In this document: positions 2,693 through 26,262 of the stretch, in pieces
Layout: the number at the start of each line of letters is the position of its first letter
How positions within the stretch are numbered: position 1 is the first letter of the stretch
DNA from: a virus
Lineage: Duplodnaviria > Heunggongvirae > Uroviricota > Caudoviricetes
Strand: one strand, 5' to 3'
IMG/VR virus record: IMGVR_UViG_3300026549_002494
Coordinates: 72,468-136,467 of that record
DNA length: 64,000 nt
Notes under the pieces: generated by a model
What the model was told of the DNA's origin: nothing
The model's input: only the letters and a program-made list of their open reading frames with translations
Databases searched by the model: none
Program-made: the position numbers and the translations under genes

Positions 2693-2971
2693 GTGTTACA
2701 CAGTATTATTAGTTTTAATGATGATAGAGGCGTTACAATAGATTTTCACAGATTAAAACAGAAGCGCCCGGAAAGCGTTTTAAATGCAGTTTTTAAAGGC
2801 TTTTCAGAGTTTGAAAGTATCTATATTACAGAGGATATGAAAAGGCGTTGCAGAGCCGTTACAATTCATTATACAGAGTATGAAAGCACAGAAGCAAACA
2901 AGACTTTTGAATGCACTTTTACAGACTTCCTGCAACGGTATGAGGCATACAAGATGCAAAAATCAGCATAA
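2693..2971 (+). CDS. hypothetical protein
   Basis: 92-aa ORF with GTG start after GAAGGGAG RBS. Followed by a terminator. Confidence 0.35.
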   Translation: MLHSIISFNDDRGVTIDFHRLKQKRPESVLNAVFKGFSEFESIYITEDMKRRCRAVTIHYTEYESTEANKTFECTFTDFLQRYEAYKMQKSA

Positions 2972-3024
2972 ACAAATTAAAATTGCTTTACAGAAGCAAT
3001 AAAAACACAATTTCATTAGTTTAA

Positions 3025-3588: not shown

Positions 3589-3705
3589 GAAGATATGGTC
3601 GCATACGATACCGGCGACTTGGAATGGGACGCGATTAAAAAAGTAATGGTGAGAGTATAAAAGATTTGATATTTTAAAAGTATAGATAAGGAGGAAAAAT
3701 AACTT

Positions 3706-3987
3706 ATGTACACAGATAAAAAATACACAATGATAGTTACACAGGAAGATTGGCGCTACCCAAGGGAAGTGCAGATTAGCTTCTTTGCGGAACAGCCTTG
3801 GGAAGGTGAGTTAAGTGATATAGTCTTTGGGGATAACGTAGATGAATTATCAGAAAGCAGTGATGGACATCCTAATGAGGGTCTTTTCTATATACTTTAT
3901 GCAAACAATAGCGGTGAGCGGATTGGGTATGGTGTAATTCACTGGGACACCATTCAGAAGAATATTGATGACTATGAAAAATATTAA
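3706..3987 (+). CDS. hypothetical protein
   Basis: 93-aa ORF with AAGGAGG RBS 8 nt upstream of the ATG. Confidence 0.4.
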   Translation: MYTDKKYTMIVTQEDWRYPREVQISFFAEQPWEGELSDIVFGDNVDELSESSDGHPNEGLFYILYANNSGERIGYGVIHWDTIQKNIDDYEKY

Positions 3988-4049: not shown

Positions 4050-4481
4050 TTAAAGTTGTTGTAAACTTTTCAACACAATATCAATTCGAGCCATTATATT
4101 GTCAACAGTTTTCTTAGACAATCCGTTATATAATGGGCGCAACTTAAAGAGATCCGTCATAATTATAGTAGCAAACGCATTTGCGTCTATTTCGGCAATC
4201 TGATTATTATAAGCTTCAACTTCAATTTCGTCGGAAGTTTTATAATTTGCAAAATATTCATTATAGTTATTACGAATTTGCCATACATGACGTAACTCAT
4301 GAGCAATAGCGAACACATCATCTGGATTGGATAGAATAATGTGACGTAAATATATAGTCGTCCCATCAGAACTACATTGAGCAAGTGTCGTTTTAGTAGG
4401 GAAATGGGATATATCATAAGATATATCGGGTGGTGTGATTTTTAAAATTTCACAAACATTTTTTATATATTCATTAATCAT
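4050..4481 (-). CDS. ImmA/IrrE-family Zn metallopeptidase-like protein
   Basis: HExxH motif (AIAHELRHVWQ). Size and minus-strand orientation typical of ImmA-like anti-repressor peptidases. Confidence 0.5.
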   Translation of the reverse strand: MINEYIKNVCEILKITPPDISYDISHFPTKTTLAQCSSDGTTIYLRHIILSNPDDVFAIAHELRHVWQIRNNYNEYFANYKTSDEIEVEAYNNQIAEIDANAFATIIMTDLFKLRPLYNGLSKKTVDNIMARIDIVLKSLQQL

Positions 4482-22876: not shown

Positions 22877-25066
22877 ATGAGAGTTTTACTATTATTAAGA
22901 GGTTCTGCCGGTTGTGGCAAATCAACTTGGATAGAACAAAATGGCTTAAAGCCGTACACTTTATCAGCCGATGATATTAGATTATTGTGCCAAAGTCCAC
23001 TTATGCAGGTAGATGGTACTGTCGGTATCAGTCAAGCAAATAATAATGTTACTTGGAAGACACTGTTTACATTGCTTGAAGTCAGAATGCAGAAAGGTGA
23101 GTTTACAGTTATTGATGCTACCAATTCTAAGACTTCTGAAATGAACAGGCATAAAGAGATGTGTAATACATACAGATATAGAATTTACTGTGTGGATTTC
23201 ACAGACATTCCTATTGAAGAGGTTAAGCGTAGAAATGCAAACAGAGAACCTTTAAAGAGAGTGCCTGATGAAGTGATTGACAAAATGTATTCAAGATTTA
23301 AGACACAAAAAATTCCTTCAGGTATTAAAGTTATCAAACCTGATGAACTTGATACAATTTGGATGAAAATGTTTGACTTTTCAGAATATAAAAAGATTCA
23401 TCACATAGGCGATATTCATGGTTGTAACACAGCATTGCAGAAATACCTATCCGATAATGGCGGTATCAAAGATGACGAAATGTATATCTTTACTGGTGAC
23501 TATGTTGATAGAGGTCTTGAAAATGCAGAAGTTGTAAAATTCCTTATCTCTATTTCTGACAGGAAGAATGTTCTCATGCTTGAGGGCAATCACGAAAGAT
23601 GGCTTTGGTTATATGCTAATGATTGTGTTGGTAAATCAAAAGAATTTGAATTAGTTACAAAACCACAGTTAGATGATGCAAAGATTGATAAGAAAGATAT
23701 TAGACAGTTATATAGGAAGTTTGGTCAGTGTGCTTATTACAAGTATGGAGATAATGTTTATCTTGTTACACATGCTGGGTTAAGTACAATGCCTGACAAC
23801 CTATCTTATGTTGCGACAGAACAGATGATTAAAGGTGTAGGTAATTACAACGACTTTGAAAAGATTGCCGAAACCTTTATAAATACCACTTCTGACAACG
23901 TTTATCAAATTCACGGACACAGAAATACAAAAGCACTGCCCGTAAAAGTGAATGACAGGGTTTATAATCTTGAAGGTCGAGTTGAATTTGGCGGTTGTTT
24001 AAGATGTGTACAGGTTGACAAAGACGGCATTCGTACCATCGAGGTTGAAAATGAAGTGTTTAAGACCCCTGAGATGAGAAGCGAACAGACCGTAACAAGT
24101 AGTTCAGTAGCTGATACAATTATAGCACTGCGTTCTAATAAGTACATTCAAGAAAAGAAATTTGGCAATATTTCATCTTTCAATTTTACAAACAAAGCTT
24201 TCTACGATAAGGTTTGGGATGAGCAGACTACAAAAGCAAGAGGTTTGTATATTGATACGAAAAAGGGCAAAGTTGTTGCAAGAGCATATGAGAAGTTCTT
24301 TAATATTAATGAAAGACCTGAAACTAAGTTTGATATGTTGCAATATAAACTTCGGTTCCCAGTAACAGCTTATGTAAAAGAAAATGGTTTCTTAGGTATT
24401 GTAAGTTATAACGAATATGAAGATGATTTGTTTATAGCAAGTAAATCCACCATTGATAGTCAGTTTGCACAGTGGTTCAAAGAGATGTTATATAGTAAGA
24501 TTTCCTCTGATAACATTAGTAAGATGAAGCAGTTTATCAAAGAAAATGACGTATCGTTTGTGTTTGAATGTGTTGATATGAAGAACGATCCTCACATTAT
24601 TGAATATCCAAAGAGCGCATTATTCCTACTTGATATTGTTAAGAACGATATGAATTTCGAGAAGTTTGAATACGAAGCGATGGTTGATATTGCAAATCAG
24701 CTTGGCATTACTCCAAAAGAAAAGGCAATCGAAATTGCTACTTGGCAGGACTTCTTTGATTGGTATTATGACATATTAGAAGAAGACTATGAATACAATG
24801 GACGAAAAATTGAGGGTTTTGTTATTGAAGATAGCGTAGGATATATGACCAAACTCAAGCTTACATACTATAACTTCTGGAAGTTTATGAGAAGTATTTC
24901 TCATGAGGCAATTAAGAATGGCTATATCAAAAAGACATCTGCTTTGACAACTCCGACAGCAAAGGAGTATTATGCATGGGTTAGAAAGCTTCATGACGTA
25001 GAAGATAAAGACAGTTTGCCAAAAGATATTTGTACTTTGAGAAGACTATTCTATAAAGATAGGTGA
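22877..25066 (+). CDS. Pnkp-like trifunctional RNA repair enzyme: polynucleotide 5'-kinase / 2',3'-phosphoesterase / ligase-like adenylyltransferase
   Basis: P-loop LLRGSAGCGKST. Calcineurin-like phosphoesterase motifs GDIHG, GDYVDRG, GNHE. C-terminal nucleotidyltransferase motif I YVKENGFLG (KxNG), as in bacterial Pnkp ligase domains. Confidence 0.7.
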   Translation: MRVLLLLRGSAGCGKSTWIEQNGLKPYTLSADDIRLLCQSPLMQVDGTVGISQANNNVTWKTLFTLLEVRMQKGEFTVIDATNSKTSEMNRHKEMCNTYRYRIYCVDFTDIPIEEVKRRNANREPLKRVPDEVIDKMYSRFKTQKIPSGIKVIKPDELDTIWMKMFDFSEYKKIHHIGDIHGCNTALQKYLSDNGGIKDDEMYIFTGDYVDRGLENAEVVKFLISISDRKNVLMLEGNHERWLWLYANDCVGKSKEFELVTKPQLDDAKIDKKDIRQLYRKFGQCAYYKYGDNVYLVTHAGLSTMPDNLSYVATEQMIKGVGNYNDFEKIAETFINTTSDNVYQIHGHRNTKALPVKVNDRVYNLEGRVEFGGCLRCVQVDKDGIRTIEVENEVFKTPEMRSEQTVTSSSVADTIIALRSNKYIQEKKFGNISSFNFTNKAFYDKVWDEQTTKARGLYIDTKKGKVVARAYEKFFNINERPETKFDMLQYKLRFPVTAYVKENGFLGIVSYNEYEDDLFIASKSTIDSQFAQWFKEMLYSKISSDNISKMKQFIKENDVSFVFECVDMKNDPHIIEYPKSALFLLDIVKNDMNFEKFEYEAMVDIANQLGITPKEKAIEIATWQDFFDWYYDILEEDYEYNGRKIEGFVIEDSVGYMTKLKLTYYNFWKFMRSISHEAIKNGYIKKTSALTTPTAKEYYAWVRKLHDVEDKDSLPKDICTLRRLFYKDR

Positions 25067-25104
25067 TGGAATTTGAGTTTAATTGACAAATAAGAAAGAG
25101 AATA

Positions 25105-25440
25105 TCTAAATAGACGGTTCCGCTAAGCTCCAGTCATTTCGATGGCAAAGAAATGCAGTGATTGTGGCGCAGATTAAATCGTGAGCAGTTAAGGGTCCAC
25201 AGCCGTCACAAGGTGCTATCTTTACATAATAGTTAAATGTCCAGTAAGGCTAAGGTGCTATGGTGCTCACATAGACCGACAGAGGAAACAGCCTAATATT
25301 TTATATGGGATAGCAACTCAAATGGCAGAGGAATTGGTAAACCTCAGACGCAGAAAGCTTCCAATTTATATTAAAAATTATGAGCAGGAGAATGTAAATG
25401 ATTTTTGTCGATATTAAAAATATCAAGAATAACGATGAAA
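25105..25440 (+). ncRNA. candidate structured non-coding RNA (GC-rich island inside the RNA-repair cassette)
   Basis: About 340 nt with no RBS-bearing ORF. GC about 45% against a 32% background. Upstream TTGACA (25083) plus an AGAGAATA motif (25097). Internal repeats AAGGTGCTAT x2. Confidence 0.25.
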
Positions 25441-25524
25441 ATAAATTTTCAATGGAGAATAAATAAACATAACTAAATACGAAAGGAGTATGAGTGCCGG
25501 CTTAATCTCATGAGGCTCTGAGTA

Positions 25525-26262
25525 GTGAATTTGAAAGGAAACAAAATTGGTGAAGAGCATCTGATTTTTAATGAAAACGCAATGGATGTTCTTGATTTTA
25601 TGATTAACAAGGGCAAGAAAGTTGATATGATTTTCACAGACCCACCTTATAAAATAACTTCCCGTGGTAATGGCGGAAATTCCGGTGGAATGTTCCAAAA
25701 GAAAGAAGTTAATAACGGAAAGGTTTTTTCGGTCAATAATTTAGAAATAGAAGATTGGCTACCTAAATTTTTTGAAGTCTTAAAAGACGATTCTCATTGT
25801 TATATTATGACCAACAACAAAAATATCACGCATTATCTTGATGTTATAAACAAGTCCGATTTTCATTTTGTCAAATGTCTCATATGGGTTAAAGATAATA
25901 AGATTATGGGTCAGTCCTATATGAGTCAATTCGAGTACATAATTATGCTCCGCAAAGGTTCTCATAAGAGAATTAATAATTGCGGAACAAGTGATGTTTT
26001 ACAGATTCCAAACAAAAAATTAAAGGGTGAAGATGGGAAAACCATTCACGACACCGAAAAACCAGTAATGCTTACGGATATTCTCGTTGAAAATTCATCA
26101 AATGAGGGAGACACAATTTTGGATCCGTTTATGGGTATTGGTGGATGTGGTGTAAGTGCGGCAAAGTTAAAACGAAAATTCATTGGTTGTGAATTGGAGA
26201 ATAGATATTATGATGTCTCCCAGCAGAGAATTAACGATGCAGTAGGAGAGAACTGCTATTAA
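25525..26262 (+). CDS. beta-class N6A/N4C DNA methyltransferase
   Basis: N-terminal FTDPPY, C-terminal DPFMGIGGCG (FxGxG). GTG start. Leader homologous to that of the 19028 gene. Confidence 0.7.
   Translation: MNLKGNKIGEEHLIFNENAMDVLDFMINKGKKVDMIFTDPPYKITSRGNGGNSGGMFQKKEVNNGKVFSVNNLEIEDWLPKFFEVLKDDSHCYIMTNNKNITHYLDVINKSDFHFVKCLIWVKDNKIMGQSYMSQFEYIIMLRKGSHKRINNCGTSDVLQIPNKKLKGEDGKTIHDTEKPVMLTDILVENSSNEGDTILDPFMGIGGCGVSAAKLKRKFIGCELENRYYDVSQQRINDAVGENCY

Follow-up and report, generated by a model that had tools for sequence, protein, structure and literature searches.

The tRNA cluster of phage T4 encodes two structured RNAs of ∼100–140 nt and of unknown function, species 1 and species 2 (rnaC/rnaD), which are co-transcribed with the phage tRNAs and released by tRNA-processing enzymes. 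GOLLD and ROOL, two Rfam families, are large structured RNAs often present in phages or prophages next to tRNA genes, and STAXI stands for the Ssbp, Topoisomerase, Antirestriction, XerDC Integrase RNA motif. Here we describe a three-stem RNA motif, one copy of which lies at positions 25205–25300 of the 64-kb stretch of virus DNA analysed (the window), inside a 458-nt gap (25067–25524) that is free of open reading frames (ORFs) and separates an RNA-ligase/kinase gene from a DNA methylase gene. The motif is a widespread phage RNA, absent from Rfam 15 and from all texts searched, and we are highly confident that it belongs to a real family of structured RNAs. An initial annotation, made from the sequence alone, had proposed a structured RNA within a GC-rich stretch of 400 nt; the proposal holds, with the structured part limited to a motif of ∼96 nt (25205–25300) whose fold is kept by compensatory changes.

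The motif resembles the T4 species 1 and 2 RNAs by context only, since it occurs in tRNA arrays (loci L226, L246, L175 and L337); unlike them, it is also found between protein genes, after genes for single-stranded DNA (ssDNA)-binding proteins, and its hosts are gut Clostridia rather than enterobacteria. GOLLD and ROOL, too, are highly structured orphan RNAs of phages or prophages and lie in clusters with tRNAs, but they are multi-domain RNAs of 500–800 nt, whereas the motif has ∼100 nt and three stems and has no match in Rfam. STAXI is, like the motif, a gut-metagenome RNA situated by ssDNA-binding-protein genes and antirestriction/methylase-type genes of mobile elements; it consists, however, of tandem pseudoknotted hairpins and is found mainly in Bacteroidales elements, while the motif is a single three-way junction of Clostridia phages, and cmscan gave no match between the two.

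The initial annotation had also compared the gap with Y RNA and YrlA. A terminal helix made by the 5′ and 3′ ends and a link to tRNA-like modules are features that the motif shares with these RNAs, and its neighbours in the window's lineage are the RNA-repair genes for Pnkp/Rnl, RlaP and the CCA-adding enzyme. Still, there is no T-arm inside the motif and no match to the Y RNA or tRNA families of Rfam, and across the family it is ssDNA-binding-protein genes and tRNA arrays that accompany the motif, rather than Ro/Rsr or RtcB. Rfam 15 has no match at gathering score anywhere in the window, and at E ≤ 10 the region 24900–25700 gave chance-level matches only, none of them to Y RNA or YrlA. No Ro/TROVE domain was found in a Pfam scan limited to eight neighbouring genes.

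Two large screens drew on the same sources (IMG/VR and the human gut), likewise relied on covariation, and may list the motif as an unnamed candidate (PMC10690425, PMC8040213). The first of them reports four candidate RNAs upstream of DNA N-6-adenine methyltransferase genes (PMC10690425); this is also the commonest gene downstream of the motif. The core sequences of the motif were not found in the full texts searched, nor in the 200 of 408 supplement files of PMC8040213 that were searchable. In our opinion the family itself is the main value of the result, and the analogies with Y RNA, tRNA and introns are unsupported. Motifs of such a profile have repeatedly proved to be riboswitches, ribozymes or protein-binding non-coding RNAs.

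A three-way-junction RNA motif in gut phages and Clostridia

The piece kept in all relatives corresponds to 25212–25300 of the window, and two invariant strings from it were used as search patterns. The pattern TTAAATGTCCAGTAAGG was found in 78 IMG/VR contigs, and TTAAATGTCCAGTAAGG followed by GAGGAAACAGCC in 81 metagenome contigs and eight contigs of bacterial genomes; a relaxed pattern added 15 further variants, in which the junction between P2 and P3 differs only in the last 2–4 bases. Altogether the family comprises >150 contigs of gut phages, metagenomes and Clostridia, with GC contents of the loci from ∼30% to >50%. The bacterial matches include Clostridium leptum DSM 753 and metagenome-assembled genomes of Lachnospiraceae, Oscillospiraceae, Ruminococcus and Ruminiclostridium. 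The copy of C. leptum DSM 753 (L339, DS480346.1, positions 3613–3711), presumably in a prophage, is among the top-scoring ones, with 106 bits. As this strain is cultivable, the motif is within reach of experiment.

The consensus reads P1, GGUGC, P2, UUAAAUGUCCAGUAAGG, P3, (A)AGAGGAAACAGCC and the 3′ strand of P1. The alignment shows that the fold is a three-way junction, in which P1 joins the 5′ and 3′ ends and ∼35 near-invariant nucleotides link the stems. P2 has five base pairs and a CUU..CAUG loop; the size of the P3 hairpin varies and sets the span from UUAAAU to AGCC, which ranges from 59 to 104 nt. A T-arm-like CUGG/CCAG hairpin considered in place of P2 was rejected: the CCAG does not vary, and the strand that would form P2 covaries with its partner in that stem.

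Covariation was assessed in a model-guided alignment of 85 copies (58 distinct sequences). Among the distinct sequences 91.4% of stem cells pair, compared with 74.1 ± 0.9% in shuffles, none of 500 of which reached the observed value, and there are 134 double-change cells where 38 were expected. In controls with slid partners, pairing falls to 21–43%. Compensatory changes are seen in 12 of the 15 pairs (two of four in P1, four of five in P2 and all six in P3); RNAalifold recovers P1 and P2, again with compensatory changes. The initial annotation had named such a comparative alignment as a check, and its outcome is a secondary structure conserved across many phages. Since U-G is the commonest pair at one position of P3, the strand of the motif is fixed.

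The window contributes one copy of the motif, composed of the following parts:

25205–25300, + strand: three-stem motif copy (model R2, 61.7 bits, E = 1.4e-12)
25108–25112, + strand: putative 5′ strand of distal P1, AAAUA, which pairs with UAUUU at 25297–25301
25211–25213 with 25292–25294, + strand: proximal P1, 3 bp
25212–25216, + strand: GGUGC
25216–25220 with 25228–25232, + strand: P2, four of five pairs standard
25233–25249, + strand: junction UUAAAUGUCCAGUAAGG, exact
25254–25262 with 25270–25277, + strand: P3, with its loop at 25263–25269
25281–25293, + strand: AGAGGAAACAGCC, present

Model R2 was built from 42 copies of other phages, with the whole jumbo-phage lineage of the window excluded, and because it contains only other phages the membership of the window copy is not circular. 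With filters off, the match at 25205–25300 is the only significant one in 64 kb, the next having 19.5 bits; model R1 gives the window copy 75.8 bits. All invariant junction nucleotides are intact, and in P3 positions 25254–25256 and 25258–25262 pair with 25270–25277 to make a clean 8-bp stem with a 7-nt loop. The five pairs of distal P1 are possible only across a 95-nt insertion and are read from the sequence; in L157, which is without the insertion, the motif is flanked by an identical AAAUA...UAUUU pairing. Between the window copy and that of the sister contig, L149, one of 97 positions differs, and this position is in the P3 loop.

Several observations count against this account. The invariance of the two longest junction strands is in part a product of their use as search keys; no such requirement applied to GGUGC, to the loop of P2 or to the stems P1–P3, and GGUGC is present or near-present in 40 of 40 representatives even though it lies outside those patterns. 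In the window, proximal P1 has only 3 bp where the main clade has a P1 of 12–15 bp, and P2 closes with a C25220-A25228 mismatch and has a CAUA loop, although the mismatch and the CAUA variant are also found in L226, L191 and L322. The score of the window copy is near the bottom of the family's R2 range of ∼55–106 bits, with L348 (55.5 bits) the only lower one among the copies scored. Finally, canonical copies of the motif are without excess folding stability (z from −0.2 to +1.0).

Standard searches did not single out the motif. Folding energies of the whole gap, its GC core and sliding 80- and 120-nt windows, compared with dinucleotide shuffles on both strands, show no excess stability (z mostly 0 to +1.9), and because canonical motif copies also have z near zero, such tests are uninformative here. 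Canonical copies, L194 among them, have no Rfam match either. ARAGORN reports no tRNA or tmRNA gene in the window, in agreement with the initial annotation, which could not fit a canonical tRNA. A search of phage GenBank with blastn produced chance matches only, in the AT-rich 3′ part of the gap, and exact 20- and 26-mers of the GC core had no matches in viral or metagenome contigs. The methodological lesson is that a real structured RNA scored negative with Rfam, with tRNA finders and with folding z-scores.

Genomic settings and possible roles

In phages of ∼30–60 kb the motif usually stands directly after a gene of the PF24083 type (‘phage ssDNA-binding’), and this holds in seven divergent clades. 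The distance from this gene to the motif is 0–13 nt in five of the seven clades; it is 80 nt in L204, and in L246 a tRNA intervenes. The genes after the motif are unrelated between phages: an N6_Mtase-like gene of 289 amino acids in most cases, DUF7659, small ORFs or tRNAs. The second setting is within tRNA arrays. In L246 a tRNA (569–642), the motif (650–771) and another tRNA (774–852) follow one another; in L226 a tRNA-Ile begins at 4328, one position after the end of the motif (4327); in L175 it is flanked by tRNA-Met and tRNA-Leu; and in L337 tRNA-Leu (140–206) precedes the motif (211–306). In the jumbo-phage lineage, the motif starts 8–12 nt after a AGAGAATA or GGAGAATA box, and tRNA-like genes come next. 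The two settings, after an ssDNA-binding-protein gene and within tRNA arrays, yield concrete hypotheses that can be tested. The initial annotation had linked the gap to RNA repair; the link is borne out for the RNA cluster of the jumbo-phage lineage, which lies beside RNA-repair genes, while family-wide the partners of the motif are ssDNA-binding-protein genes and tRNA arrays.

The phages with tRNA arrays (L246, 569–642; L226, 2619–5301) also encode a suppressor-type tRNA with anticodon UUA and two tRNA-Ile(UAU) genes, which may point to codon reassignment or to anti-defence tRNA sets. A PF24083-type gene was not found in the window. A weak tblastn likeness to the PF24083 protein of L204 (24.6% over 69 amino acids, E = 0.001) is seen at 358–564 on the − strand; a small profile search did not confirm it, and it may be due to chance or to a very distant homologue.

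The usual place beside an ssDNA-binding-protein gene, in modules of replication and nucleotide metabolism (helicase, MazG, NrdD/G), would be natural for an element acting as single-stranded DNA instead of RNA, for example a site for priming or for initiation that belongs to the replication module, and covariation alone cannot separate the two. We regard this as highly improbable, given that the motif is co-oriented with the neighbouring genes in nearly all of ∼160 loci checked, is embedded in tRNA arrays and, in jumbo phages, follows a promoter-like box by ∼10 nt; moreover, U-G and G-U pairs are common in its stems and make the majority pair at one position.

The reading that we favour, though tentatively and with rather less than firm confidence, is that the motif is the gene for a small stable trans-acting RNA of ∼100 nt, processed from tRNA-type transcripts. 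The motif would be co-transcribed with tRNAs or neighbouring genes, and tRNA-trimming enzymes would release the RNA, its 3′ end being made by RNase P acting on the downstream tRNA and its 5′ end by 3′ trimming of the upstream tRNA. P1 would shield both ends, and the invariant junction would offer a site to which a conserved macromolecule of the host or of the phage binds. In the window, after deletions, the motif is now ∼220 nt upstream of the genes for the methylase, RlaP and the CCA-adding enzyme, and it would make the 5′ part of a transcript running into them. A discrete RNA product is favoured by the copies located 1–8 nt from tRNAs, next to which there is nothing to regulate.

Against a discrete trans-acting RNA it counts that its ends, stability and transcription are inferred from sequence. 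It also counts that copies of the motif in the commonest clade have an ORF on either side, with the stop codon of the ssDNA-binding-protein gene just before P1 and a ribosome-binding site (RBS) 3–10 nt after it. Such a layout suits a cis-acting leader equally well, be it a riboswitch-like sensor or a protein-binding operator controlling downstream translation or transcription, perhaps with feedback by the ssDNA-binding protein. The recurrence of the motif behind the PF24083 gene in divergent clades agrees with such a leader, and junctions that hardly vary are a common mark of pockets for ligands or proteins; in the main clade the 3′ strand of the long P1, CCCUUU, could pair with the RBS, GAAAGGAGG, though this RBS-sequestering pairing was read by eye in one clade. 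The f1 gene V protein, a phage ssDNA-binding protein, is an established translational repressor. T4 gp32 is another ssDNA-binding protein acting as a translational repressor (PMC10690425). We find a cis-acting leader somewhat unlikely: copies 1–8 nt from tRNAs on both sides have no ORF to regulate, jumbo-phage copies run directly into tRNA-like genes, and the downstream genes are functionally unrelated between phages. Of the features expected for riboswitches, the motif has an aptamer-like core; its downstream genes are heterogeneous and include tRNAs, and no intrinsic-terminator-like site is present in the window between 24500 and 26000, around the motif copy.

A three-way junction with invariant joining strands, as in small ribozymes, and a position at cassette boundaries next to tRNAs bring to mind a self-cleaving ribozyme or a recognition signal for a nuclease, by which polycistronic transcripts would be cut where tRNA or gene cassettes end. 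In addition, AGAGGAAACA with GUC on the opposite strand is reminiscent of the hairpin ribozyme, of its loop B and its cleavage site, a likeness of few words and in a different topology. Neither the window nor the canonical copy L194 has a match at E ≤ 10 to the Rfam ribozyme families examined (hammerhead, hairpin, twister, pistol, hatchet and HDV-like), and no cleavage site can be inferred from the sequence, so that we give this explanation a slim chance.

We think it quite doubtful that the motif represents a new functional class of RNA of gut Clostridia phages, either a self-processing ribozyme that separates tRNA or gene cassettes or a decoy or sponge RNA. As a decoy it could possibly, together with tRNA-like RNAs and RNA-repair enzymes, counter host defences that target tRNA or sense nucleic acids.

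Composition and history of the gap

The gap is shown by comparison with relatives to be a patchwork, in which one intact copy of the RNA motif stands amid deletion leftovers and gene leaders. Its other components and its neighbours are:

22877–25066: kinase/phosphatase/RNA-ligase gene of 729 amino acids, with domains AAA_33, Metallophos and RNA_lig_T4_1
25083–25104, + strand: promoter-like stretch, TTGACA at 25083–25088 and a AGAGAATA box at 25097–25104
25113–25207, + strand: 95-nt insertion (‘block B’) of ∼50% GC, with ends GACGG/CCGUC, interrupting the 5′ strand of P1
25307–25333, + strand: tRNA-like relic of an armless gene, with the 5′ acceptor strand and the D arm kept and the T arm and 3′ acceptor strand deleted
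25334–25397, + strand: leader of a gene of 91 amino acids, RBS AGGAG at 25386–25390, 85–94% identical to its equivalents in L157–L173
25398–25466, + strand: truncated gene, a 22-codon ORF made of the first two codons of the 91-amino-acid gene and, beyond the junction at 25403, the 3′ end of a second small gene
25454–25524, + strand: pre-methylase leader, with a GGAGAATA box at 25454–25461, an RBS AAAGGAG at 25482–25488 and a 7-codon mini-ORF at 25490–25513
25525–26262: DNA methylase gene of N6_N4 type, start GTG at 25525; genes for RlaP and the CCA-adding enzyme are next downstream

The initial annotation had put the GC content of 25081–25480 at ∼45%; we measured 35.2%, a value that is matched or exceeded by 27% of 400-nt windows. 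The real bump is narrower: 25105–25360 has 43.4% GC, compared with 33.1% for the whole window, and ranks in the top 0.4% of 256-nt windows, with a peak of 50.5% at 25113–25205. The absence of an RBS-bearing ORF from the stretch was stated correctly insofar as there is a large gap, but the 22-codon ORF with its AGGAG and the mini-ORF with its AAAGGAG are present. As for repeated boxes, AAGGTGCTAT does occur twice (at 25210 and 25252), but the second box is not a conserved repeat. At its position most relatives have CACGATGCTAT or GCGATGCTGT, and the sister lineages L320 and L337 share the version of the window; the second box is the 5′ strand of P3 in the window's sub-lineage. The AAGGTGCTAT...AAGGTGCTAT pair, tried as a conserved pattern in a database scan, gave 61 matches, all of them unrelated coding repeats.

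The 3′ flank of the ligase gene proves to be variable. In 33 loci with ligase homologues (IMG/VR, 57–89% protein identity) the gap sequence is absent from all, and in most of them another gene starts within ∼4 nt after the ligase. Similarity to contigs whose ligase proteins are 95–97% identical stops at 25074–25080, beyond which these contigs carry other methylases and small genes, and the flank is therefore a mosaic hot spot of recombination; the left boundary of the mosaic module is at ∼25075–25081, just before TTGACA. The methylases in this flank (window 25066–25540; L149, L152, L154 and L155) differ in type (N6_N4, D12 and C5), as do the small genes, and the window ligase ORF is 4–13 codons shorter at its 3′ end than in most relatives. 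An intron, group I having been suggested by the words UAGACGG and GCUAUGG, was considered and rejected: Rfam has no match to a group I or group II intron, and both flanking genes are intact, the ligase aligning with its homologues over residues 1–729 and the methylase from residue 1.

Relatives were reached through exact-protein look-ups. Window 24649–25403 corresponds to positions 1–755 of L149 (98.7% identical) and 25403–25536 to positions 1891–2025 (99% identical); between the two shared blocks L149 has four extra small genes, of 91, 65, 81 and 130 amino acids. Since the alignment breaks and resumes at 25403, the ATG at 25398, with AGGAG upstream, is the start of the 91-amino-acid gene, which is intact in L149 and was shortened to 22 codons in the window by a deletion of ∼1.1 kb. 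The protein has no relatives in IMG/VR; homologues (63–99% identity) were found only in a large protein collection. Directly upstream of the homologous genes there is nearly always a long gene-free stretch, of 331 nt in L149, ∼580–606 nt in L157–159 and L168–171, and 1214 nt in L162, L163 and L165. In L160, a gene of 92 amino acids abuts the 91-amino-acid gene directly and the RNA motif is absent from the locus; a TnpB-like gene (OrfB_IS605 with a Cas12f1-like TNB domain) lies at 1259–2455, ∼550 nt upstream of the 91-amino-acid gene.

The gap aligns to L162 in three pieces (25070–25293 with 1780–2002, 25303–25333 with 2456–2486 and 25334–25403 with 2936–3006), and the L162 DNA that the window is missing encodes non-canonical tRNA-like genes. 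One, at 2460–2519, is an armless gene of 60 nt, to which the Rfam tRNA model assigns 40.7 bits; in another the anticodon region contains a 38-nt insert, and a third is weak. The initial annotation's idea of a tRNA-like scaffold therefore has some basis in 25307–25333, which is half of a tRNA-like gene, and fails for the motif itself, which matches no tRNA model; alignment of 25307–25333 to the intact relatives stops at 25333, and neither ARAGORN nor Rfam reports a match there. The tRNA-like genes occupy 2211–2281, 2460–2519 and 2711–2803 in L162, 2888–2960 in L168, 2731–2804 and ∼2181–2245 in L157, and 1726–1802 in L159. The armless form consists of acceptor, D and T arms only, and its T stem shows compensatory changes between phages; some of the other genes have odd anticodon loops and are reported by ARAGORN as ‘tRNA-??? 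(ta)’. In every case checked RNA-repair genes are nearby.

Sister lineages keep the full order of motif, two or three non-canonical tRNA-like genes and 91-amino-acid gene. Within the jumbo-phage lineage the RNA cluster is beside RNA-repair genes in three different layouts: in the window Pnkp/Rnl is upstream and RlaP with the CCA-adding enzyme downstream, L162 has Rnl1 and a kinase, and L157 and L159 have the CCA-adding enzyme. The window gap thus has a dated history, that of an RNA gene cluster tied to RNA-repair enzymes and eroded by deletions in the hot spot of recombination, with one RNA kept.

Only the window, L149, L162, L163, L165 and L318 have block B; it is missing from L157, L168, L320, L289 and every other member of the motif family. 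Four of the ten window/L149 differences fall within 93 nt of block B, compared with nine of 2929 in the flanking coding sequence (Fisher p = 5e-4); being significantly faster than the coding flanks, block B looks unconstrained. Its folding is no more stable than expected (z = +0.55), and neither the covariance models nor Rfam match it. The ends of the motif are resembled by GGUUCCGCUAAG and GUUAAGGGUCCACAGCC in block B, and a decayed tandem copy of the motif was considered as its origin; neither R1 nor R2 detects such a copy, which leaves a weak lead.

In this phage, and compatibly with the other explanations, the whole stretch could be a non-functional relic, recombination debris in which the motif is itself decaying. 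The hot spot, whose methylases and small genes change from each close relative to the next, the loss of the tRNA-like genes and of the 91-amino-acid gene by deletion, the fast evolution of block B and the short proximal P1, mismatched P2 and low score of the window copy are all in keeping with a relic. We nevertheless think it unlikely, since the invariant junction nucleotides are all intact and P3 is perfect, other family members have the same P2 variant, and the motif differs from that of L149 by one loop substitution while the adjacent insertion differs by four (a direct contrast of 1/97 with 4/93 that is not significant, p = 0.20). A decayed remnant, which the initial annotation gave as the alternative to its structured RNA, is accordingly an apt description of block B, the half tRNA-like gene and the 22-codon ORF, and not of the RNA motif. 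Six-frame peptides of the gap had no significant match to any of the loci and no protein-like remnant, so that a decayed ORF is rejected for the GC core.

Promoter-like box and pre-methylase leader

Both upstream elements pointed out in the initial annotation, TTGACA at 25083 and a recurrent motif at 25097, are present, the latter being AGAGAATA. This box occurs 18 times in the window compared with 5.2 ± 2.5 expected (3.4-fold), and 17 of the 18 copies are on the + strand; ten of these 17 fall outside + strand ORFs, although such DNA makes only 21% of the window. In L157, L168 and L320 the box sits 8–12 nt upstream of the motif, and in L289 and L334 it does so as GGAGAATA. It looks like a −10-only phage promoter, a function suggested by sequence and position; a sigma-70 promoter scan did not flag the stretch 25083–25104. 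Sites of AGAGAATA in the window include 3076, 10226, 14438, 19964, 20120, 25097, 30323, 31978, 33026 and 59622, and most copies are intergenic, directly upstream of genes or of the RNA motif. The box is also found ahead of the methylase cassette in L034.

The pre-methylase leader is common to the window and L149, where it precedes a different, D12-type methylase. The layout of box, RBS and mini-ORF is shared by the methylase homologues L034 and L035, while 50 loci with methylase homologues have just 26 nt of the leader in common. Palindromes are found before the methylase, GCCGGC and CTCATGAG in the window and GGTATACC and AAAGAATTCTTT in relatives (L034, ∼2930–3000; L036). The methylase start, GTG at 25525, has a poor RBS, whereas the mini-ORF (6–7 codons in this group) has a strong one. 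From its sequence, this arrangement of mini-ORF and palindromes could serve translational coupling, or autoregulation at recognition sites.

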